NCBI GenBank assembly: GCA_016935525.1
Contig: JAFGQU010000021.1
Span: 15,028-79,027 of the forward strand
DNA from: Candidatus Omnitrophota bacterium
GTDB taxonomy: Bacteria; Omnitrophota; Gorgyraeia; Duberdicusellales; 4484-171
Length of the DNA stretch: 64,000 nt
Direction: 5' to 3'
Positions 13,039 through 30,736 of the stretch are shown in pieces (position 1 is the stretch's first letter; each line of letters starts with the position of its first letter). The notes beneath the pieces were generated by a model, which was not told the origin of the DNA, made no database searches, and saw only the letters and a list, made by a program, of their open reading frames with translations. The position numbers and the translations under genes are program-made.

Positions 13039-13440
13039 TTAGCAGGTAGCGGTGAGAGATTTATAGTTTCTATACATCCTTTCGACATTCTTATTATTCA
13101 CGTGATCGTGATGTCTGAACCCTCCGCCGAAATTTTGAGGAATATGCATAAGTTCATGGATGATCACTTTATCCTGTTCTTCGCCGGGAAGCTTATCAAA
13201 CCGTTCAGAAATAAATTCAATAGCATAATACGCCGGACACCCGATAGTTTTCTGCATGATCTTTGCTAATCCGTGACATCGCGCGATCGCGCGCCGTGAA
13301 GTGGACCCCGAACTTCTGAAACACTTGAATAGTTCCGGATGAATGTGAGGGAACAATGTCTTACAGATGTCTTCGGCTTTCTCCTGGAGATCACCCGCGA
13401 ATTCATAACCGATAGTTTTTCTTCTTTTCTTTCGGCGCAT
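13039..13440 (-). CDS. HExxH-motif zinc metallopeptidase-like protein (SprT/DUF45-like)
   Basis: 133 aa with HELMHI followed by a His-rich segment (GGGFRHHDH). Confidence 0.4.
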   Translation of the reverse strand: MRRKKRRKTIGYEFAGDLQEKAEDICKTLFPHIHPELFKCFRSSGSTSRRAIARCHGLAKIMQKTIGCPAYYAIEFISERFDKLPGEEQDKVIIHELMHIPQNFGGGFRHHDHVNNKNVERMYRNYKSLTATC

Positions 13441-13503: not shown

Positions 13504-13536
13504 TCGCTGGTCGATGGTCTATGGTCGTTAGTCAAA
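13504..13536. repeat. Short heptamer repeat remnant (TGGTCGA TGGTCTA TGGTCGT)
   Basis: Reads gctggtcgatggtctatggtcgttagtc at the left edge of the AT-rich island. Confidence 0.5.
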
Positions 13537-13680
13537 AACCAGGCAGGTGTCGGAGCTCACCCCGAATCGAGCTTCGCTCTGGTTCGGGGTCGGTCTTATT
13601 CTGCCTTCGGCAGAATCTCCTAAATACCCACCCATCTAGGGTAGCCCTTCAAGCGCACTTCGCGCGCTTTCCCTCATCTT

Positions 13681-14193
13681 CTATTCGAATTTCCATTTCT
13701 CTTGCCTAAAAAAATCAAACCGATTAAAATACCGGATCTTATAAAAACTGCAGATATTAGGGATTCGATAGGTATTCGTTTTAAAACTCTCATCTGTAAC
13801 CACAGCACAAGAAAACTTTGATTTTCCATTAGTATACTCTCTATTCTCTCTAATCGCCAAAGCAATAACCCAAGGGTCCGCATAAGGAGGTTCTTTATCA
13901 GGGCTAGCAAAGCCAGGATGATCTTTCAAAATATCTATCATAATATCTTGTTGGATGTCGTCTACATCAATAAACATATGTTTATTATCCTTAACCCAAT
14001 CAACCAAACCATCTTCATATCTAACTAATTCATCATGTACTTCTAGTGGAGATATTAGCCGTTCCTCTTGGATCAATTTCTCAATGTTAGGCCAAATTTT
14101 AGGATAAATGTCGGCGGGATGTTGTCGATAAATATTAATCAACGCACTGCTATCAATACAATATTTAATTTTTTCTTCCTCATTGCTACTCAT
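13681..14193 (-). CDS. DUF4411-family (PIN-like) protein
   Basis: 170 aa with an N-terminal YCIDSSALIN and the conserved acidic residues typical of the PIN-like DUF4411 fold. Its start overlaps the stop of the upstream ImmA/IrrE gene by 4 nt. Confidence 0.6.
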   Translation of the reverse strand: MSSNEEEKIKYCIDSSALINIYRQHPADIYPKIWPNIEKLIQEERLISPLEVHDELVRYEDGLVDWVKDNKHMFIDVDDIQQDIMIDILKDHPGFASPDKEPPYADPWVIALAIRENREYTNGKSKFSCAVVTDESFKTNTYRIPNICSFYKIRYFNRFDFFRQEKWKFE

Positions 14194-15320
14194 ACCATCG
14201 CCAACATTCCTACATCATGAAAATATTTAGTTTTTATTCCTAAATAATTAGACATATCAGCAGCAGTAATGAACCCTTTATTACCGGCCTCAAATACCAT
14301 AGAAACATAACGCTTGCCTTTCTCCGAAACACAGCGACCTGCGACAGTACTTCGTCCAAACGCTTTATATGGTTTTTCTTGTCTTTTCATCTCTTCGTAT
14401 AATTGCTGATACTTTCTGAAAGAAATATAATTCAATACTTGGAGACGTCTTAAGAAAACATATTTGCTAACTTTAAATTTTCTGGCAATAGATTTTATAG
14501 TTGGGATATCAAATATTTCATTCTTAAAACTGATCACATTTGTTTTTGGTACTAAAAATGCACCGGAAAAATGATTACTGAAAATTTCTCCGCTCTCTGA
14601 GTGTTGGTCTTCTTTATATTCTGGCAAACACATACCTTCTCTACCAATAAGTATGTGTGCATATTCATGAAATAATGTAAATATTTTTGCATTAATAGCA
14701 TCTTTGGAATTTATGACTATTGCTGGCAACCCTTTCCCATAAAAAGTAAATCCTCGAATTTCATTAACTGGTAAACTAAGTTGAAAAACTAATATATTCT
14801 GACTTTCTACCCATTTTCGCCAAATTTGAAAGGCTTCAAATGAATCACGCCAGTTAAATTGTTCTTCAATCTTTATTCCACAAGTCTGCCTAATCTGCTC
14901 AGCCACTATTTCAGGATTTTCAGAAAGCGAATGCGCTTTAAAATCCGGCCCTTTTACATTCAATTCCATAGCTAATTCTGAAGCCCTAGACTGATACTGT
15001 CGAGCCCTACGTATTAATATTAAGCTTTTGGAAGATATTGGCAGACGTACTTCATTAGGCAAGGTACGAAAATCTTTTAGCAAGACTTTTGTCTTAGGTG
15101 GTTTTGGCAAGAAAAAAGCTGTTAAAGGACGTTTGTAATATGTCGAGAGTTTTCTTAGTTTTGCAATAGTTATATCTACATCTCCCGATTCCCAAGTTTC
15201 GAGCAACTCAGGTTTTACTTTCAATTTTCCAGATATTTCCTCGACACTAAAACCTGCTGTATCGCGAGCCCATTTTAAAGTTGCCGGAGTAATTTTTGCT
15301 ATAATACTCTTATGTCTCAT
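14190..15320 (-). CDS. XRE-type HTH fused to an ImmA/IrrE-family (COG2856) zinc metallopeptidase
   Basis: 376 aa with an N-terminal HTH (TLKWARDTAGFSVEEISGKL...) and the metallopeptidase motif HEYAHILIG. Confidence 0.7.
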   Translation of the reverse strand: MRHKSIIAKITPATLKWARDTAGFSVEEISGKLKVKPELLETWESGDVDITIAKLRKLSTYYKRPLTAFFLPKPPKTKVLLKDFRTLPNEVRLPISSKSLILIRRARQYQSRASELAMELNVKGPDFKAHSLSENPEIVAEQIRQTCGIKIEEQFNWRDSFEAFQIWRKWVESQNILVFQLSLPVNEIRGFTFYGKGLPAIVINSKDAINAKIFTLFHEYAHILIGREGMCLPEYKEDQHSESGEIFSNHFSGAFLVPKTNVISFKNEIFDIPTIKSIARKFKVSKYVFLRRLQVLNYISFRKYQQLYEEMKRQEKPYKAFGRSTVAGRCVSEKGKRYVSMVFEAGNKGFITAADMSNYLGIKTKYFHDVGMLAMV

Positions 15321-15325
15321 ATTTT

Positions 15326-16435
15326 CTAACTAAAGAATTCCCCCTGAAACGCCTCCTGCATTAAAGAATTAAAAAGATTATTTAATTCTTTTTCTGACTC
15401 TTTTTGTTTTTGCTTCAAACTTTCAACTTTTTGAACAAGAGTGGCGAATTTCTTCTGTTGGGGCAAGGGGGGAAGAATTACCTTCAACTTTTCTAATGGT
15501 TTTTGTGTTATTTTTGGCTGCCCAGAAATATCTGCATATCGGTTTAATTGATGGAACCACAATAAATAAAACAAAAATTGTAAGTCAATGTCTTTCTTGA
15601 ACTGCTTTATGTAAATAGCATTATCCGAAACCCAACATTTACCTCTTGTGAGATGAACACAACCACAATAGACACCCACTCGTCCAATAACAATCGTCGG
15701 GAATTCGACTAAATAATCATTAAAATAACCCATAATCCCATTGCCCCCATATGAAGGGTATGGGTATGAATTATCGAGATTTTTCGAAGGGTTAAATTTC
15801 CCACTAGATAAAATAAATAAGTCCTTTCCAAAGGCTATGCCCCACCCTTTTGTATTCTTCACCGGATCGCCGAACATTTCCAAAAATGCTGATTTCAAAA
15901 ATTCATCAGTCAATTTGTTTATGTGGGCTCTCTTTTCAATTGTAGATTCAGCCTTAGCAAGAATTGCCGATGTCTTTATTTTTATCGGCTCCGAAACACT
16001 TGGCACTTTAATTTCTTCAATATCTGACAATCGTATAGATGGGTACGCTTTATCCCGTATAAGCTGACTTGGGCGGAATCGCCTGAACCAATATTTTAGA
16101 AACTCGCTATCAATTTCTTTTTTAGGTATTATTGTCGCAAGGTGGCTGACTACATAACAAGAATTTTGCAATACATAAACTCTGTCTTTTGTCGCTGACA
16201 TGCCACTTTTAGCAAATAAAATTGTTCCTTCAGGAAAAAGTCTTAATTGAAATTTTTTTGCTACATCATCATTAATCTTTTCAAGCGAATTTTCGTCTCC
16301 GCCAGACAATAAAAATTCTAAACTTCCTGCCCTAACAAAAGGGTGTCCTACCTTGCCAAAATACTGCTGACCTTGAGGAGCACCTTGCCCAGCTGAGACT
16401 TCAGCAATAGTTTTTAAATATGTTGTTTGCTTCAT
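15326..16435 (-). CDS. hsdS: Type I restriction-modification specificity subunit
   Basis: 369 aa with the HsdS-typical TRD plus conserved-helix architecture. It overlaps hsdM by 4 nt. Confidence 0.75.
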   Translation of the reverse strand: MKQTTYLKTIAEVSAGQGAPQGQQYFGKVGHPFVRAGSLEFLLSGGDENSLEKINDDVAKKFQLRLFPEGTILFAKSGMSATKDRVYVLQNSCYVVSHLATIIPKKEIDSEFLKYWFRRFRPSQLIRDKAYPSIRLSDIEEIKVPSVSEPIKIKTSAILAKAESTIEKRAHINKLTDEFLKSAFLEMFGDPVKNTKGWGIAFGKDLFILSSGKFNPSKNLDNSYPYPSYGGNGIMGYFNDYLVEFPTIVIGRVGVYCGCVHLTRGKCWVSDNAIYIKQFKKDIDLQFLFYLLWFHQLNRYADISGQPKITQKPLEKLKVILPPLPQQKKFATLVQKVESLKQKQKESEKELNNLFNSLMQEAFQGEFFS

Positions 16436-17943
16436 AGCTCTTTATCGATTTCCATAACTAGGATATCAATTTCTTTCTCTAAATAATGAATTTTCTGAAT
16501 TATGGTTTTTGGATCCTCGTATTCTATTTCTTCGTATTCAATCGGTTTATATCTCGAAATTGAGAGATCATAATCATTTTGTTTTATTTCTTCAAGACCA
16601 ACCCATAGCCATTTATCGCCTTTTTCTGGTTGTCTATTTTTATCACGGACTTTCCATTGTTGAACAATATCCGGGATATCATTCTCTTCAATTTTATTGC
16701 GCTTATCATCAAGGGAATACCCATCTGCCTGCATATCGTAAAACCAAACTTTATCGGTTTTATCGCCTTTAGTAAATACAAGAACTGCCGTTGAAACTCC
16801 AGCGTAAGGCTTGAATACTCCGGCAGGCATAGAAATAACTCCTTCAAGCGCACATTTTTCTAGAATCATTTTCCGAATATCTTTATGAGCATTACTTGAC
16901 CCAAAAAGTACACCGTCAGGCACAATTACACCACACCGACCGCCTGTAGTTAGCATATTTGTAAAAAGATTGATAAATAATAGTTCGGTTTTTGGACGTT
17001 TGCTCTTTCCTGCAATCGTCAAATCTTCACTTATATCGCTACGATCGACACTTCCCTTAAATGGTGGATTAGCAAGGATCACATCATAACAATTTCTTTC
17101 ACTGAAATTTTTTGATAATGTATCTGCATAGCAAATATTTGGGTTGGCGATTCCATGAAGCACCATATTCATTAGCCCTATTCGTACCATCGTAGTATCA
17201 AAATCATAGCCATGAAATGCTTTTTCCCATAGAAAGTTCCACTGTTTCTTATCTACAATTTTATCTCCCACCAAATTATGAGGCGCTCCATCTTCATCGT
17301 ACTCTATTTGGTCAGAGTCGGTATGCATTTTAAGAATATGATTAAAACTGGCAATCAAAAATCCTGCAGTTCCGCAAGCAGGATCACATATTCTTTCACC
17401 TAACCGAGGATCTAACAACTCAACAATCATCCTGATAATGTGCCTAGGAGTTCGAAACTGACCATTTTTACCTGATTGAGATATCTCACTTAAAAGATAC
17501 TCGTAAATATCTCCTTGGATATCTATTCCCTGAGCTGAAATATTGAGTTCATCTATAATTTTAACAGCTTCTTGTAAAAGAGATGCCTTAGGTATTAGAA
17601 ACACCGCGTCTTTCATAGATTCAGCATAAAAATTACCATCTCCACCTAATTGTTTAATGAATTGAAAAACAATATCTCGCACATGTTTAAGCATCCCTTC
17701 TGCATCAAAATACATCCAGTGCGACCATCGGCAATTCTCTTTTTTCGCAAAAATTGACTTATATTCAATATTGCGCCTTTTAGCGGCATTCTTCTGCATA
17801 TTGTCCATATCTTCAAGACGTCTCATAAAAATGAGATAGGAAATTTGCTCTACCGCGACTAATGGATTTGACAATCCTCCAGAATAGAACATGTCCCATA
17901 ATTTGTCGATTTTACTCTTAATTTGTGGATTCGAACTTAACAT
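16432..17943 (-). CDS. hsdM: Type I R-M DNA methyltransferase subunit (N6-adenine)
   Basis: 503 aa with the NPPF catalytic motif (ILANPPFKGS) and a SAM-binding motif. Confidence 0.9.
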   Translation of the reverse strand: MLSSNPQIKSKIDKLWDMFYSGGLSNPLVAVEQISYLIFMRRLEDMDNMQKNAAKRRNIEYKSIFAKKENCRWSHWMYFDAEGMLKHVRDIVFQFIKQLGGDGNFYAESMKDAVFLIPKASLLQEAVKIIDELNISAQGIDIQGDIYEYLLSEISQSGKNGQFRTPRHIIRMIVELLDPRLGERICDPACGTAGFLIASFNHILKMHTDSDQIEYDEDGAPHNLVGDKIVDKKQWNFLWEKAFHGYDFDTTMVRIGLMNMVLHGIANPNICYADTLSKNFSERNCYDVILANPPFKGSVDRSDISEDLTIAGKSKRPKTELLFINLFTNMLTTGGRCGVIVPDGVLFGSSNAHKDIRKMILEKCALEGVISMPAGVFKPYAGVSTAVLVFTKGDKTDKVWFYDMQADGYSLDDKRNKIEENDIPDIVQQWKVRDKNRQPEKGDKWLWVGLEEIKQNDYDLSISRYKPIEYEEIEYEDPKTIIQKIHYLEKEIDILVMEIDKEL

Positions 17944-17957
17944 TTCATCTCCTGTTA

Positions 17958-18073
17958 AATAGGGTAATATTAATTTTATTTTACCCTATTTATATAACAT
18001 ATTACCCTATTTCTGTCAATAGGGTAATTATTGTCAAATATTACCCTATTTATTCATATCATTACCCCATTTT
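17958..18073. promoter_or_regulatory. Array of six copies of the decamer TTACCCTATT (4 direct, 2 inverted) upstream of hsdM
   Basis: The copies are aaatagggtaat, ttaccctattta, attaccctatttc, aatagggtaatta, attaccctattta and attaccccatttt, all in the AT-rich fic-hsdM spacer. Confidence 0.6.
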
Positions 18074-18114: not shown

Positions 18115-19155
18115 TTACACTTTTTTCCACTTGGCATTACGCCCAATTCCTGTAGATTTTATCTTTCCAGCATCTCTTAAATCTCTCAATACTTTCCTTA
18201 TCATATCGCGGGTCACATTCGGACAAGCCTTTTCTAGTTCTGAAATCGAAAATGGCTTAATAAATCTATTGATTTGGGCGATTATCTGACCTGTCTTAGA
18301 CCTCGTACGCTTAAAAACTCCAACTCTCCCTTCAAATTCTTTATATGCAGCAAGTAACATAGCATGAAAATAATCAAGCCAGGGGAATATATTGTGCTCA
18401 CCTTGATGCCAACCGTTTGAAGAAGCAATAAGAGAATCATAATAACTATCTTTCGACTCTTCAATGATTCGTTCCAAACTTATGTATTTTCCTACACGAT
18501 AACCACATTTGTATAACAATAAAAGGGTTAACAACCGCGCGATCCTCCCGTTCCCATCTTTGAATGGATGAATGCATAGAAAATCAAATATAAACAATGG
18601 GACTAGAATAAGGTGATCATGAATTTCGTCCTCAATATATTTGTTATAAAGCGTGATGGTTTTTTTCATATAATTGGACGTATCTTTTGCGGGTACCGTC
18701 TGGAAACGAATGGTTGTGCTCCCATCAGGATTCTTATCTACAATAGCGTTATCCACTTTTTTCCAAAATCCGGACTTAATAGTTGTATATCGATATAACA
18801 TTGAATGGAATTGCAATATGACATTTTCATCGAGAGGAATATTTTGGTGTGATTGATGGATAAGGTTCAATACATCTTTGTAACCAGCAATTTCTTGTTC
18901 AGGACGGTTACGGGGTTTAGTTTTTTCTTTTACAATATTCTCAATCCTTTTATGCGGTGCCGTTACACCTTCTATCCTATTGGATGCTTCTGTACTTTCT
19001 ACAATCGCACTCTCCAGTAACTTTTCTAATACATCAGGTGACTGTCGAGTATAGAGCTCTTCTTTTCCTTTATATTCTCCTAGTACATGGATTGTCTTTA
19101 ACATTTTTGAATCAAATTTCAATTTTTTTAGATATTTTGACTCTAGCGATTCCAT
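18115..19155 (-). CDS. Fic-family protein (class II, N-terminal inhibitory helix) with C-terminal winged-helix domain
   Basis: 346 aa with the Fic motif HPFKDGNGRIARLL and an upstream [ST]xxxE[GN] inhibitory motif (SNRIEG). The C-terminus is basic and DNA-binding-like. Confidence 0.85.
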   Translation of the reverse strand: MESLESKYLKKLKFDSKMLKTIHVLGEYKGKEELYTRQSPDVLEKLLESAIVESTEASNRIEGVTAPHKRIENIVKEKTKPRNRPEQEIAGYKDVLNLIHQSHQNIPLDENVILQFHSMLYRYTTIKSGFWKKVDNAIVDKNPDGSTTIRFQTVPAKDTSNYMKKTITLYNKYIEDEIHDHLILVPLFIFDFLCIHPFKDGNGRIARLLTLLLLYKCGYRVGKYISLERIIEESKDSYYDSLIASSNGWHQGEHNIFPWLDYFHAMLLAAYKEFEGRVGVFKRTRSKTGQIIAQINRFIKPFSISELEKACPNVTRDMIRKVLRDLRDAGKIKSTGIGRNAKWKKV

Positions 19156-19165
19156 TTCGATCTCC

Positions 19166-21955
19166 TTATACTTTTATACTATTAAAAACTCCTATTATCT
19201 CCTGCAGTTCTTCTTCGGAAAATAACCTTGTAGCTGCATCTATCCCAAACTGGGTAAATGGAGGCTCAAAAAGATCGTCGTATTCAATATGTTTCTTCTT
19301 AGCAAAAACATTCTTTATTGTGCGTAAAAAGCGTATTTGCTCAGCCGTAAGCGCGTAGTGGTTGTTTCTTTCAATAACATAGGTATTAAAGGATTCATTA
19401 ATTATTTCTTCTGGTTCAGGGAATTTATATAAGCCAAGGATGCTCTTTATAAATTGTAAAAAACTACCATAGGGGCAAGCATACGTCTTTCTTAAATTAT
19501 CTTCATTTATATAGAGTTCGGGACTATTTAAGGTATCTTCTAAATCTACCAGGTCTTTGTCGGAAATTGGCTTATTCTGTTTTATTTTGACAAGAGCGGG
19601 ATGCGACTCTGCTAATTCTATGACTCTCTTTTCCACATTCTTTCGATAGCTATACACATAGTCGCCCTCTCCTTCGGGTCCAAATTCTATCCATTTCCTC
19701 TCAATCACTTCATCATCAAGGTCAAGTTTCACAATAGATGGTGGTTCTATCCTTTTATATTTCATTATTTCTGTAAGATTAGTCTTTATGTATTCAATCT
19801 TTTCATAATCAAGTTTATGCCAAAAATCAGAAGATAAAACTTTTATAATATGGCTTTCCTGTTCTTTTACTGCCTTTAGATTGCGCGGCAGACATTTAAT
19901 GTCATTTGTGATGGAAGTTCTGTACTTCTCTAAATCTTCTTTTTTATGGGTGATACAGGCTAAACCAAGATTTTCTACTTTAAGTAAGAATTGGTATTGA
20001 TAAATATTTATATCACTACAACAACGTAACAATGGTGCAATTTCTTGATCGAGAAATTGAATCGATTTAGTATCAACATCATCCCACACCTCTTTAGATA
20101 ATGCCTTATGGATATTACGTAGATTCTCACGAACAGTAATAGAGGGTTCGGGTAAAGATTGAATGTCATTTATGATTTCCTCTTTGACCTTATCAAAATA
20201 AGCTTGGTTAGACTGTCTAAATAGATTGAGCTTCTTTAATCGCACCCTAAATACTTTCACTGGCAAAGCTTCTTGTTGCGCTGGAACTTCGCCTTCTGGT
20301 TTTTCACCAAAATACTGGAAGTTGTTCCAGTGATCTATTATCAAAAATCGATCTTTTTCAATACACCATGATTTCCTTTTTAGCAAATCATCCTCTAATG
20401 TTCGAGTTCCTCGCCCAATCATCTGCCAAAACTTTATTTTGCTAAATACTGGTTTAGCAAACACAAGATTTACAACTTCTCGTATATCAACGCCAGTATC
20501 AAGCATATCTACTGAGATAGCAACACGTGGATAGTTCTCATTTTTGAATTTATCAAGCAGCTTCAGCGGTCTTTCCATCTTCGAATCTATAATATCGACC
20601 AGTTTACCCTGGTACTCTGGATACAATTCATTAAATACCATCCACAATCTTTTTGCATGTTCATGCGAAAGTGCAAATATAATGGATTTACCCGGTACTA
20701 CACCAGAATCATCTTTAAGACATACATCCATAAACTCACGTACTAATGACTCATTTGTACCTAGATTTGTAACCTTTTTTTCCAAATCAGTACCTTCAAA
20801 ATCGATCTCCTCAAGGGTTAACCCTTCTTCAACTAGTTTCTTTTGTATACTTAGCGGCAATTCGTTACCTTTAATTCCTGTAATCTGAAAGTTTGTCTTT
20901 GCAGCATATGGTGGTCGAAAATCAACAAGATACTTATCTTCAATAGCTTGATTGTATGCATAATTAAAAGTGGGGTGCCCATTTTCACAACTAAAAAATT
21001 TAAAAGTATCTCTATCAAGAAAATCGCTGGGAGTCGCAGTTAAACCAATTTGGATGGCATGAAAATAGCTTAGAACATCTTTCCATTTATTATAAATTGA
21101 TCTGTGACACTCATCTGAGATAACTACATCAAAAAATCCTGGAGATACAGAGGAAAAACACCCCATCATTGTCTGAATTGTCGCAACATTCAATCGCTTC
21201 GACTCCTGTAAATCGCCATAGCGTATCCAATGACGAGATTCATTAGGAAGATGCTCTTTAAAATTATCATAAGCCTGTTGCGCTAACGCTTCTCTATCGA
21301 CAAGGAAAAGCACTCTTTGTGCCCATCCTGCTCGGATTAAAACATCTATCAATGCCATAGCTGTTCGTGTTTTCCCTGTGCCAGTTGCCATAACAAGTAG
21401 AAATTTGCGTCTGCTCTTTTGTAAGCCATTAAAAATTCGCTTCAACCCTTCTATCTGGTAATCTCTATTGATAATTTCTGGTTTTATAGGTATTGAATGT
21501 AAATCTTTGCTATGCTCATTCTGATACAGGGTGCGTTCCAAATCTTCACGACTGAAAAATCCATGCACCATAGATGGCGCGTAACGCTGTCTATTCCAAT
21601 ACCATATTTCGTATCCATTCGTTAAAAAGATAAGCGGTTCCCTTCCATATTGTCTTTGTATACCGTCAGCATAGTCCTCGGCCTGCTGTTTTCCTACAAT
21701 TGGATCACGTGAAGTACGCTTTGCTTCTACAATAGCTAAAGGGTCACCAGCACGGTCTAAAAGAAGATAATCAGAAAAACCTGCTGTTTCATATTCCGCT
21801 TCACCATCGGAAATAGGTCGTCGAGTTCCTGCTCCTGCAATTTCAAATTCTGTTAACACGTGAGAATGGTCGTTTATCTGCCAACCAACTTTTTCCAAGC
21901 TTGAGTTTATTATTTTCTTTCTCGTCTGCATTTCTGTAGGATCAATATGATACAT
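19166..21955 (-). CDS. hsdR: Type I restriction enzyme R subunit (helicase/endonuclease)
   Basis: 929 aa with Walker A MATGTGKT and the DEAH box VISDECHRS (SF2 helicase). Confidence 0.9.
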   Translation of the reverse strand: MYHIDPTEMQTRKKIINSSLEKVGWQINDHSHVLTEFEIAGAGTRRPISDGEAEYETAGFSDYLLLDRAGDPLAIVEAKRTSRDPIVGKQQAEDYADGIQRQYGREPLIFLTNGYEIWYWNRQRYAPSMVHGFFSREDLERTLYQNEHSKDLHSIPIKPEIINRDYQIEGLKRIFNGLQKSRRKFLLVMATGTGKTRTAMALIDVLIRAGWAQRVLFLVDREALAQQAYDNFKEHLPNESRHWIRYGDLQESKRLNVATIQTMMGCFSSVSPGFFDVVISDECHRSIYNKWKDVLSYFHAIQIGLTATPSDFLDRDTFKFFSCENGHPTFNYAYNQAIEDKYLVDFRPPYAAKTNFQITGIKGNELPLSIQKKLVEEGLTLEEIDFEGTDLEKKVTNLGTNESLVREFMDVCLKDDSGVVPGKSIIFALSHEHAKRLWMVFNELYPEYQGKLVDIIDSKMERPLKLLDKFKNENYPRVAISVDMLDTGVDIREVVNLVFAKPVFSKIKFWQMIGRGTRTLEDDLLKRKSWCIEKDRFLIIDHWNNFQYFGEKPEGEVPAQQEALPVKVFRVRLKKLNLFRQSNQAYFDKVKEEIINDIQSLPEPSITVRENLRNIHKALSKEVWDDVDTKSIQFLDQEIAPLLRCCSDINIYQYQFLLKVENLGLACITHKKEDLEKYRTSITNDIKCLPRNLKAVKEQESHIIKVLSSDFWHKLDYEKIEYIKTNLTEIMKYKRIEPPSIVKLDLDDEVIERKWIEFGPEGEGDYVYSYRKNVEKRVIELAESHPALVKIKQNKPISDKDLVDLEDTLNSPELYINEDNLRKTYACPYGSFLQFIKSILGLYKFPEPEEIINESFNTYVIERNNHYALTAEQIRFLRTIKNVFAKKKHIEYDDLFEPPFTQFGIDAATRLFSEEELQEIIGVFNSIKV

Positions 21956-21980: not shown

Positions 21981-22706
21981 CTACATCATCCCTGCGTCAG
22001 CAAAACTGAAATGTCGGTTATCTCCTATTATTAAATGATCCAATACTTTTATCCCCATTATCTTACCTGCCTTAATCAACTCTTGATTAAAACGATTATC
22101 GTCAATGCTAGGGTTGCAATCGCCCGAAGGATGGTTATGAACACAGATGATTGCGGCAGCAAAATGCTGCAAGGCTTTCTGGAAAACCTCTCGTATAATT
22201 GGGACGGCTTTGTTAACTGTCCCTTCGGTTATTTCGATGATATCGATGACTCTGTTCTTTGAGTTCAGAAGAATGATTTTGAATACTTCTTTTTTCAGAT
22301 CACGCATGCGCGGCATGAGGATATCAACGACATCTTTTGACGATTTGATCTGAGGCCGATCTTCTTTTACCTCTGTTTCCTTAAACCTCCTGCCTATTTC
22401 TATCGCTGCCTTTATTTGAGCAATCTTAGCTTTTCCTAATCCTTTAATTTCTTCCCATTGGGCTATGTCGGTATGGGCCAGATTACGAAACCCTTTGAAT
22501 TTCTGAAGCACTTTTCGGGAAAGATCGATCGCACTTTCCCCTTTTACCCCGTTACGGATCAAGATCGCCAGCAATTCCGTATCGCTCAGGGTATGCTCTC
22601 CGTTTTTGAACAGTTTTTCCCGGGGTCTATCATCTTCCGGCCAGTTATGTATTGCGGTAGGATACTCTCTATTGCGGCTTTTATACGTAGCTTTCTCTTC
22701 CGACAT
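21981..22706 (-). CDS. radC: RadC-family JAB/MPN domain protein
   Basis: 241 aa with an HhH N-terminus and the JAMM motif HNHPSG. Confidence 0.85.
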   Translation of the reverse strand: MSEEKATYKSRNREYPTAIHNWPEDDRPREKLFKNGEHTLSDTELLAILIRNGVKGESAIDLSRKVLQKFKGFRNLAHTDIAQWEEIKGLGKAKIAQIKAAIEIGRRFKETEVKEDRPQIKSSKDVVDILMPRMRDLKKEVFKIILLNSKNRVIDIIEITEGTVNKAVPIIREVFQKALQHFAAAIICVHNHPSGDCNPSIDDNRFNQELIKAGKIMGIKVLDHLIIGDNRHFSFADAGMM

Positions 22707-22899: not shown

Positions 22900-23580
22900 T
22901 TATGCTATCGACTCATCCTCATCAAACAACAGATGTTTTATTTTGGCTAAATCACGTTGATAGAAAACTCTGTCTTGAACAAAGCTTAAGTACTGTGCCG
23001 GTCTTATTTCAAATAAATCGCCGTACTCGCACATTCTTTTTGCTTTTTTATCCAGTGAAACGTATTCTTTATACGATGAGGCTCTCCAGTCGGCAGGATC
23101 ATTTGTCAAATACGCTGTTACAGGATTGAGATGAACATACCGAGTTAAATGCAATAATTGATCATCGGTTTCCACCCGAACATTCTTAAAACGTGCTTCC
23201 CATAATGGTCCTTTCCGGTCATATTTGGTATTAAAATATCGAGCGTAACTATTCAACAATCTTCGCACAAAATCTGATATTCCATTATCGACTGTCTGTT
23301 TAAGAACTAAATGTATATGAGTCGGCATACTGCAATAAGCGATAATCTGGACAAGTTTTTGGTCAGATTGAGATACGACTGTATTCGTTTCTTTTATCTG
23401 TTCACTAGTCATTCGATCAAACTTGCTGAAGCTTATAGGTCTATCTCGATACTGATAATATTCTATCATTTTTGCCATGCGTATATAATCATAGTCGTTA
23501 TGGAATACTACGTATTTCGCAATCGTACGAGAAAACACATGATAGACCTGTCCCGTAATCAACTTCTGCGTCCGTACCAT
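22900..23580 (-). mobile_element. REP-associated tyrosine transposase (RAYT, IS200/IS605 Y1-transposase-like)
   Basis: 226 aa with the HUH motif MPTHIHLVL and a downstream catalytic Tyr region (NSYARYFN). The gene is flanked by GGCAAC...GTTGCC palindromes. Confidence 0.75.
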
Positions 23581-30659: not shown

Positions 30660-30736
30660 TCCCCGGTAGCTCAGTCGGTATGAGCAACTGACTGTTAATC
30701 AGTGGGTCGTAGGTTCGAGCCCTACCCGGGGAGCCA
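30660..30736 (+). tRNA. tRNA-Asn (anticodon GTT), CCA encoded
   Basis: Cloverleaf: acceptor tccccgg/ccgggga, D-arm gctc/gagc, anticodon stem actga/tcagt with loop ctGTTaa, T-arm gtagg-ttcgagc-cctac, discriminator G and CCA. Confidence 0.85.

Follow-up and report, generated by a model that had tools for sequence, protein, structure and literature searches.

The gene pair and its domains

The 64,000-nucleotide stretch of a Candidatus Omnitrophota genome assembly analyzed here (contig JAFGQU010000021.1; hereafter the window) carries on its minus strand two overlapping genes, one for a 376-aa protein that joins a helix-turn-helix (HTH) to a zinc peptidase of the ImmA/IrrE type and one for a 170-aa DUF4411 protein with a PIN fold. 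We propose that this pair is probably a toxin-antitoxin (TA) module of the abortive-infection kind, of the type represented by VapB52/VapC52 of Mycobacterium tuberculosis, and that its two genes close a Type I restriction-modification (R-M) operon acquired by horizontal transfer. What is documented here for the window pair is its family and fold, its catalytic and regulatory residues, the linkage of its genes, and its place in the operon; the stoichiometry, trigger, and substrate are carried over from the M. tuberculosis homologue. A Candidatus Omnitrophica metagenome-assembled genome (MAG) at NCBI carries annotated proteins identical to both window proteins, and a separate Logan assembly agrees with the window at all 11,255 compared bases. 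The pair and its parts are as follows, with the basis of each assignment in parentheses (AF2, AlphaFold2 model).

14190–15320, minus strand: antitoxin gene, 376 aa, with XRE-HTH, M78 (ImmA/IrrE) and helical C-terminal domains (Pfam, PADLOC, PDB profile match)
13681–14193, minus strand: toxin gene, 170-aa DUF4411 PIN-fold protein, VapC52-like (Pfam, AF2, PDB profile match)
14190–14193, minus strand: ATGA stop/start overlap of the antitoxin and toxin genes (sequence read directly)
15105–15293, minus strand: N-terminal XRE HTH domain, aa 10–72 (Pfam, AF2 helices, Foldseek)
15045–15077, minus strand: flexible linker, aa 82–92, with the DFR motif (F84, R85), predicted self-cleavage site (AF2 confidence, alignment)
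14442–14807, minus strand: M78 zinc-peptidase domain, aa 172–293, including HEYAH, C231 and the third zinc ligand E245 (Pfam, alignment, Foldseek)
14193–14345, minus strand: helical C-terminal domain, aa ~326–376 (AF2 helices; colinear with the C-terminal region of VapB52)

The antitoxin gene comes first, and its stop codon shares four nucleotides, ATGA, with the start of the toxin gene, an overlap that suggests translational coupling of the two. A preliminary description of the locus had claimed this 4-nt overlap together with a fused HTH and COG2856/M78 peptidase bearing an HEYAH motif and a PIN-like DUF4411 partner. All of these are present, and the Pfam models assign both proteins to the families that it had named.

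In the antitoxin, Pfam places HTH_3/HTH_19 at aa 15–70, with HTH matches spanning aa 13–71 overall, and Peptidase_M78 (PF06114, IrrE N-terminal-like) at aa 172–293 (E = 1.8e-15), where HEYAH occupies aa 218–222 (nt 14655–14669). The best PADLOC model, RmrA (E = 7.9e-22), covers the protein at nearly full length, from aa 10 to 366. The AF2 model (predicted local distance difference test, pLDDT, of 88.6) runs from a five-helix HTH (aa 12–22, 26–33, 37–45, 52–62, and 66–70) through a disordered stretch, a helical region, and the alpha/beta peptidase to a helical C-terminal domain (aa 326–334, 336–347, 353–360, and 364–375). Only one segment of the model, aa 82–92, falls below pLDDT 50; it overlies the FR motif, as expected for an exposed cleavage loop. 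All 79 aligned antitoxin homologues share R85, and 78 of them have F or Y at position 84; H218, E219, H222, and E245 are likewise invariant in all 79. When searched with Foldseek, the HTH domain alone matched ImmR and the R-M controller proteins C.BclI and C.AhdI, and the top PDB matches of the peptidase were CapP (7t5t), IrrE (3dti), and PprI (8sln), with an M. tuberculosis regulator (6cyy) also recovered. Sequence comparison and structure prediction together establish the 376-aa protein as an XRE-HTH joined by a predicted disordered linker with an F/Y-R site to an M78 peptidase, followed by a helical C-terminal domain.

The toxin assignment is equally direct. DUF4411 (PF14367) covers the 170-aa protein end to end (positions 1–159 of 159, E = 4.7e-30), its AF2 model reaches pLDDT 95.6, and the best PDB folds for that model are all VapC toxins (VapC11, Rv0301, and VapC21; Foldseek probability 1.00). 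A word-index search with the protein returned only four proteins, and an exhaustive HMMER search was needed for a usable alignment; it found 2,026 cluster representatives related to the window toxin. Across the 139 cluster representatives aligned, D106, E135, and W66 are invariant and D14 and E55 nearly so. D106 and E135 are invariant also among 64 toxin homologues aligned with VapC52. None of the PADLOC models, RmrT included, matched the toxin at E ≤ 0.01. The same two lines of evidence, sequence and predicted structure, identify the protein as a PIN-fold nuclease with four putative catalytic acidic residues.

Homology to VapB52/VapC52

VapB52 and VapC52 are Rv2515c and Rv2514c of M. tuberculosis, described by Singh et al. 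(Nucleic Acids Research 2026; PMC13273310) with PDB entries 9vzy and 9vzz; the same source credits Tandon et al. (2019) with showing that Rv2515c/Rv2514c is a functional TA system. Entry 9vzy is composed of three 393-aa chains named "HTH cro/C1-type domain-containing protein" and six 162-aa chains named "DUF4411 family protein," and 9vzz contains only the DUF4411 protein, in a variant in which Ala replaces the first catalytic Asp. Searched against PDB sequences, a profile of 40 antitoxin homologues matched 9vzy_A at full length (profile positions 10–384, E = 1.2e-71), and the toxin-family profile matched 9vzy_D (E = 2.9e-39). The Foldseek search of the PDB with the antitoxin model missed 9vzy, which the sequence search recovered. 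By BLASTP, the window antitoxin is 28% identical to VapB52 (E = 3e-41) and the window toxin 28% identical to VapC52 (E = 3e-20), in both cases over the full length.

According to Singh et al. (PMC13273310), VapC52 is a PIN RNase that cuts tRNAs in the anticodon or variable loop; D6, E48, D99, and E117 are required, and tRNA cleavage is abolished in PIN mutants. VapB52 binds the VapC52 dimer at a ratio of 1:2. Toxin binding requires its N-terminal domain, and the toxin active site is blocked by its C-terminal domain. H216, H220, and E245 coordinate the zinc of its peptidase, joined in the resting state by C229 (the "cysteine switch"). Single-stranded DNA (ssDNA) induces self-cleavage, probably at the FR motif F75/R76, with loss of the N-terminal domain, and the H216A/H220A protein does not cleave itself. 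The preliminary description had called the arrangement not experimentally characterized, a statement that is outdated now that the M. tuberculosis homologue has crystal structures (9vzy/9vzz), tRNase activity, and ssDNA-triggered self-cleavage; its prediction of a protease-gated toxin, on the other hand, matches the mechanism reported for that homologue.

Residues were mapped through alignments with 79 antitoxin and 64 toxin homologues. In the antitoxin, F84/R85 of the window correspond to F75/R76 of VapB52, H218/E219/H222 to H216/E217/H220, C231 to C229, and E245 to E245; in the toxin, D14/E55/D106/E135 correspond to VapC52 D6/E48/D99/E117. By alignment, all functional residues named in PMC13273310 are kept in the window pair. 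Judged from its sequence, then, the pair is a distant, intact member of the VapBC52-type family, and the relatives described below extend this family, whose mechanism was worked out in 2026, to a wide range of bacteria and archaea.

A different role for the peptidase would be to cut a separate repressor or a phage protein in trans, as in ImmA/ImmR, IrrE/DdrO, and CapP/CapH, with the PIN protein induced transcriptionally. CapP and IrrE are homologous to the peptidase domain and resemble it in structure, and a model of this kind was proposed for COG2856-Xre-PIN operons in 2009 and in 2017. In the window, however, HTH and peptidase form a single protein, and neither the list of open reading frames (ORFs) nor Pfam shows a small XRE gene of its own beside the pair; the F/Y-R site is conserved in cis across homologues (R85 in 79/79, F or Y in 78/79) and lies in a disordered linker; and the M. 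tuberculosis homologue cleaves itself and binds its toxin directly (PMC13273310). We regard trans-acting anti-repression as extremely unlikely here.

The restriction operon and its borders

The minus-strand gene order is hsdR-fic-hsdM-hsdS-ImmA-DUF4411, with RadC further upstream. The features around the pair are listed here in ascending order.

13039–13440: "putative phage metallopeptidase" gene (PF18894), on the other flank of the low-GC block from RadC (Pfam)
13520–13680, minus strand: GC-rich multi-hairpin region 3′ of the toxin gene, ending in a U-run (RNA fold)
15326–16435, minus strand: hsdS (Pfam Methylase_S; PADLOC Specificity_I, E = 1.5e-73)
16432–17943, minus strand: hsdM (Pfam N6_Mtase/HsdM_N; PADLOC MTase_I, E = 2.3e-175)
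17958–18071, no strand assigned: six-box AATAGGGTAAT array in the fic-hsdM spacer (pattern scan)
18115–19155, minus strand: Fic/DOC gene between hsdR and hsdM (Pfam Fic, E = 1.1e-14; PADLOC SoFic, E = 2.7e-35)
19166–21955, minus strand: hsdR (Pfam ResIII/EcoEI_R_C/HSDR_N; PADLOC REase_I, E = 3.9e-157)
21981–22706, minus strand: RadC, flanking the low-GC block (Pfam)
22900–23580: IS200-type Y1 transposase, beyond RadC

The pair lies directly 3′ of hsdS, as the preliminary description had it: the gap from the hsdS stop to the ImmA start is 5 nt, and hsdM and hsdS overlap by 4 nt. The six genes from hsdR to DUF4411 have a GC content of 34–36% against 42–53% in the flanks, with a rise to 52% right past the DUF4411 stop. 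Because of this uniformly low GC relative to the flanks, the block from hsdR to DUF4411 looks like one horizontally acquired unit, with the pair as the last two genes of its Type I R-M operon. The segment at 13520–13680 folds at -66.9 kcal/mol (z = -4.83 against shuffles) into several hairpins with a U-run after the last and contains a terminator-like site at 13562–13545. It is probably both the terminator of the operon and the compositional border of the island, where GC steps from 34% to 52%.

Upstream, the pair is probably co-transcribed with hsdM-hsdS from the fic-hsdM spacer (171 nt, 25% GC). AATAGGGTAAT is an 11-bp box present there in four exact copies and two with one mismatch, all within 114 nt, in the orientations + - - + - - and at spacings of 17–22 nt, which makes two 3-box units. 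The rest of the 64 kb contains no copy with up to one mismatch, and a count of six was not reached in any of 100 shuffles. The array looks like a candidate operator ahead of hsdM-hsdS-ImmA-PIN. As a family-wide operator for the antitoxin HTH, arrays of this type find no support, exact 9-mer repeats upstream of homologous operons being no commoner than in control spacers. A scan for sigma-70-like promoters gave 30 sites against 35.3 in shuffles, below chance and thus no guide to transcription units, and the single Rfam match in the whole 64-kb window is a tRNA-Asn at 30660, with none at the pair.

Conservation and spread of the pair

A pattern scan of GTDB, with one genome per species, confirmed 316 related loci, of which the best 80 were examined. 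A second, independent set of 88 loci (80 metagenome and 8 viral contigs) brought the total examined to 168, and more than 420 related loci are found in metagenomes. Archaea and many bacterial phyla are represented among the best 80 of the 316 genome loci, at 33–45% identity. In 78 of these 80 a DUF4411 ORF is next on the same strand, and the other two (L054 and L056) are cut by contig ends. The toxin gene abuts or overlaps the antitoxin gene in 76/80, with the 4-nt overlap of the window in 17/80. Among the metagenome and viral loci, a DUF4411 gene follows ImmA in 79/88, with five of the nine exceptions at contig ends. The same pair is annotated on plasmids of cultured Methylorubrum and Iamia. 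Since adjacency is kept in the genome, metagenome/viral, and plasmid sets, the ImmA-like subfamily of the window is strictly tied to DUF4411.

Some individual loci depart from this layout. Two metagenome loci, L115 and L163, have no detectable DUF4411 ORF after ImmA although the contig continues, and in L115 the ImmA gene is followed directly by an 838-aa helicase; these may be cases of toxin loss. In five others (L051, L025, L078, L095, and L142) the antitoxin or the toxin is split into two ORFs, likely by frameshifts or decay.

Restriction genes beside related pairs

By Pfam tally, the genes immediately upstream of the pair (position -1, n = 76) include 8 N6_N4_Mtase, 8 Eco57I/N6_Mtase-type methylases, and 1 HsdS, and those immediately downstream (+1, n = 67) include 13 ResIII helicase/restriction proteins. 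In the Pfam control, which tallied 91 genes at a distance of four positions, the 25 commonest families include neither a DNA methylase nor ResIII. A seed-based classification of the same neighborhoods gave the counts below; its seeds were picked from the neighboring genes themselves, so that the Pfam control is the only unbiased one.

Methylase at -1: genome loci 18/74; metagenome and viral loci 18/74
Helicase at +1: genome loci 12/67; metagenome and viral loci 7/65
Methylase four or more genes away: genome loci 1 of ~305 genes; metagenome and viral loci 1 of ~197 genes

A DNA methyltransferase thus lies immediately upstream in 24% of loci and a restriction-type helicase immediately downstream in 11–18%. 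An R-M neighbor occurs within three genes in 29/80 genome loci and 24/88 metagenome/viral loci; roughly two in three related loci lack an R-M neighbor and lie among unrelated genes, housekeeping ones included. The association of the pair with restriction genes is real and position-specific.

Several layouts recur. In the Type III layout, mod-ImmA-PIN-res (e.g., L014, L027, and L084), the gaps on the methylase side are 0–35 nt. In another (L061 and L074), a ~1,200-aa Eco57I-type methylase precedes the pair and a PLD/SNF2 helicase follows it. Counted together, the pair stands between a methylase and a ResIII or PLD-SNF2 helicase on one strand in L014, L019, L022, L027, L043, L044, and L084, in L061 and L074, and in L028 and L035; the L019 contig is cut upstream, leaving the helicase alone visible. 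Most methylase/pair/helicase junctions measure 0–35 nt, with one gap of 76–201 nt in each of L027, L028, and L043. The Type I layout hsdM-hsdS-ImmA-PIN is found only in the window and in one archaeal locus (L055) among the 168 loci, and phmmer searches with the window HsdM, HsdS, and HsdR across the related loci returned L055 as the sole other Type I-linked locus. The ~420–480-aa upstream genes of several archaeal and bacterial loci were considered as diverged HsdS/HsdM and set aside, being housekeeping genes or having no Pfam match. In L103, L106, L110, and L111 the pair precedes an N6_N4-type methylase, followed in L106 and L111 by a large ORF, i.e., a possible pair-mod-(res?) order. L043 carries a Fic-like gene upstream of its methylase, comparable to the window fic between hsdR and hsdM.

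In a neighbor-joining tree of the antitoxins (without support values), the various types of R-M-linked loci are dispersed among loci without such a link, which suggests repeated association with R-M genes rather than one inherited event. The same tree could be used to argue that the pair is an addiction cassette and nothing more: a selfish TA pair that stabilizes a mobile R-M island because cells without the island are killed, with no sensing, defense, or link to restriction. R-M-linked copies spread over many antitoxin clades fit this explanation, as do the mobility and promiscuity of the module, its frequent residence among housekeeping genes, its presence on plasmids and viral contigs, the position of the window pair in a low-GC island beside an IS200-like transposase, and the failure of the intact M. 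tuberculosis pair to protect against phage D29. Set against it is the sharp positional dependence of the neighbor enrichment, with methylases at -1 equally frequent in two independent sets, helicases at +1 enriched in both, about one match per 200–300 genes from the fourth gene outward, and no family of this kind among the commonest in the Pfam control. In many loci, too, M and R genes enclose the pair at distances of 0–35 nt, which is more than hitch-hiking would give, even if an addiction role within the operon is compatible with it, and the ssDNA-responsive protease of the homologue points to signal-dependent activation. We consider addiction as the sole function unlikely.

The position between methylase and restriction genes also bears on whether the HTH-peptidase protein could be a transcription factor that times R-M genes in the manner of C proteins, with the PIN protein a subordinate effector. 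Its N-terminal HTH resembles C.BclI and C.AhdI by Foldseek, the HTH of VapB52 superimposes on C.Csp231I at a root-mean-square deviation of 0.96 Å (PMC13273310), many related pairs lie between methylase and restriction genes, and the window has its six-box operator-like array just upstream of hsdM. This likeness is, however, generic to XRE-family HTH domains, and the role reported for the HTH domain of VapB52 is toxin binding (PMC13273310). In M-pair-R loci there are mostly 0–10 nt from the PIN stop to the R start, leaving no room for a regulated promoter, and the window pair is downstream of all the R-M genes. Homologous operons are not preceded by comparable box arrays, and the Fic protein or another factor could bind the AATAGGGTAAT boxes instead. 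A controller function is, in our assessment, very unlikely.

Proposed mechanism

We return to the VapBC52-type TA module at the end of an R-M operon, for which a sequence of events can be proposed by homology with the M. tuberculosis system. A single antitoxin would bind a toxin dimer through its N-terminal domain and plug the active site with its C-terminal domain, while the peptidase would be held off by C231 on the zinc. ssDNA, whether from phage replication, DNA damage, or the degradation of cut DNA, would release the cysteine switch; the peptidase would then cut its own linker at the FR site, and the N-terminal domain would be lost. The freed toxin would cleave tRNA anticodon or variable loops and translation would stop. 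Purely as a hypothesis, placing such a module inside an R-M operon could make it a second line behind restriction.

Carried further, this hypothesis would give ImmA-DUF4411 pairs a dedicated role as a second line for restriction systems that translocate DNA (Type I, Type III, and methylase plus PLD/SNF2-helicase), a generalization that we offer tentatively and think rather doubtful. It is suggested by the position-specific embedding of the pair in R-M operons together with the ssDNA trigger of the M. tuberculosis homologue. The ssDNA or fragments that arise when restriction cuts, stalls, or partially destroys incoming DNA would switch on the antitoxin protease, and a tRNA-cutting toxin would be freed to turn off translation when restriction had engaged but not ended the infection. 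The "backup system coupled to restriction" of the preliminary description is plausible in the same sense, with comparative genomics as its sole support. Hypothetically, coupling of the pair to restriction could lie in triggering by ssDNA from restricted DNA, or in no more than stabilization of the island by a TA module.

Several observations weigh against the VapBC52-type interpretation or parts of it. At just 28% identity to VapB52/VapC52, the targets, affinity, and trigger of the window pair could all differ. The cysteine-switch position (C231 in the window) is Cys in just 54/79 homologues, and the switch may not hold across VapBC52-type antitoxins. Codon 248 of the window antitoxin (nt 14577–14579) is AGT, encoding Ser, at a position that is Cys in all 79 homologues and in VapB52; it sits one helical turn (three residues) after the zinc ligand E245, and its base is identical in the independent assembly. 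Co-transcription with hsdMS is read from spacing alone. In M. tuberculosis, VapC52 overexpressed alone protected against phage, whereas toxin and antitoxin co-expressed gave no protection against phage D29 (PMC13273310), which leaves phage defense by the intact module hypothetical even for that pair.

Relative to the literature searched, the recurrent, position-specific embedding of the pair in R-M operons is new, and no description was found there of the pair inside Type III or methylase-helicase operons; toxin genes in R-M operons are an old idea. R-M neighborhoods of VapBC52 were not analyzed in PMC13273310. With a homologue that responds to ssDNA, this gene order points to a possible connection of restriction with abortive infection that experiments could address directly.

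Comparison with known systems

The window pair shares with VapB52/VapC52 an identical gene order, a three-domain HTH-M78-C-terminal domain antitoxin, a DUF4411 PIN toxin, and colinear full-length homology. It differs in the Ser248 substitution, in lacking the 23-residue disordered N-terminal extension of VapB52, and in lying inside a Type I R-M operon of an Omnitrophica MAG. Canonical VapBC modules likewise have a PIN-fold toxin with four acidic residues, but their VapB antitoxins are 8–13 kDa proteins of the RHH (ribbon-helix-helix), AbrB, or Phd (or MerR) type, whereas the window antitoxin is a 376-aa HTH-M78 enzyme. Binding in VapBC52 is 1:2 versus 2:2 or 4:4 in canonical VapBC (PMC13273310).

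Similar gene combinations have been noted before. A 2009 bioinformatic study predicted that fused HTH-COG2856 genes beside PIN toxins form three-component TA systems; a 2017 study placed DUF4411.1 downstream of HTH-DUF955 and noted that PIN-like toxins occur coupled with subunits of Type I R-M systems but not with Type II systems; and the NetFlax network reported ImmA-type antitoxins paired with PIN-like toxins. RosmerTA (RmrT/RmrA; Millman et al. 2022; Ernits et al. 2023) represents a class of HTH-ImmA antitoxins with shown phage defense. Its antitoxin, an HTH plus an ImmA-type zinc peptidase, resembles that of the window, which matches RmrA models, but the window toxin matches no RmrT model, and the RosmerTA toxins tested are membrane-depolarizing or of unknown function and not PIN RNases, in contrast to the PIN fold of the window toxin.

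The best structural matches of the peptidase belong to CapP/CapH (from the cyclic-oligonucleotide-based antiphage signaling system, CBASS), ImmA/ImmR (ICEBs1), and IrrE/DdrO (Deinococcus), which have in common with it an M78 peptidase with an HExxH plus Glu zinc site. PMC13273310 describes a cysteine switch and ssDNA activation for CapP as for VapB52. CapP, ImmA, and IrrE cut a separate XRE repressor and thereby de-repress genes, whereas in the window the HTH and protease are one polypeptide whose output would be the release of a bound toxin; the window antitoxin also has no GAF domain.

Finally, a parallel in operon position is PrrC-EcoprrI (a Type Ic locus), with RloC, in which a nuclease gene is embedded in a Type I R-M operon. 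PrrC is a latent tRNA-loop-cutting nuclease within a Type Ic R-M locus and fits the concept of "immunity-suicide coupling" (PMC1484252, PMC3458546, PMC3506569). It combines an ABC-ATPase with an anticodon nuclease and has no homology to the window toxin, in which just DUF4411/PIN is detected. PrrC, which has no antitoxin, is kept silent by the R-M enzyme itself and activated by the Stp peptide of T4, in contrast to the window module with its own antitoxin and putative sensor. That R-M operons of Types I and III carry suicide toxins was put forward as a general idea in 2012, on the paradigm of PrrC-EcoprrI, in a paper (Makarova et al. 2012) that emphasized the absence of classical antitoxins from such loci. 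The window cassette, unlike those loci, includes its own antitoxin and, if the second-line proposal is true, would give immunity-suicide coupling a concrete sensor, signal, and effector.

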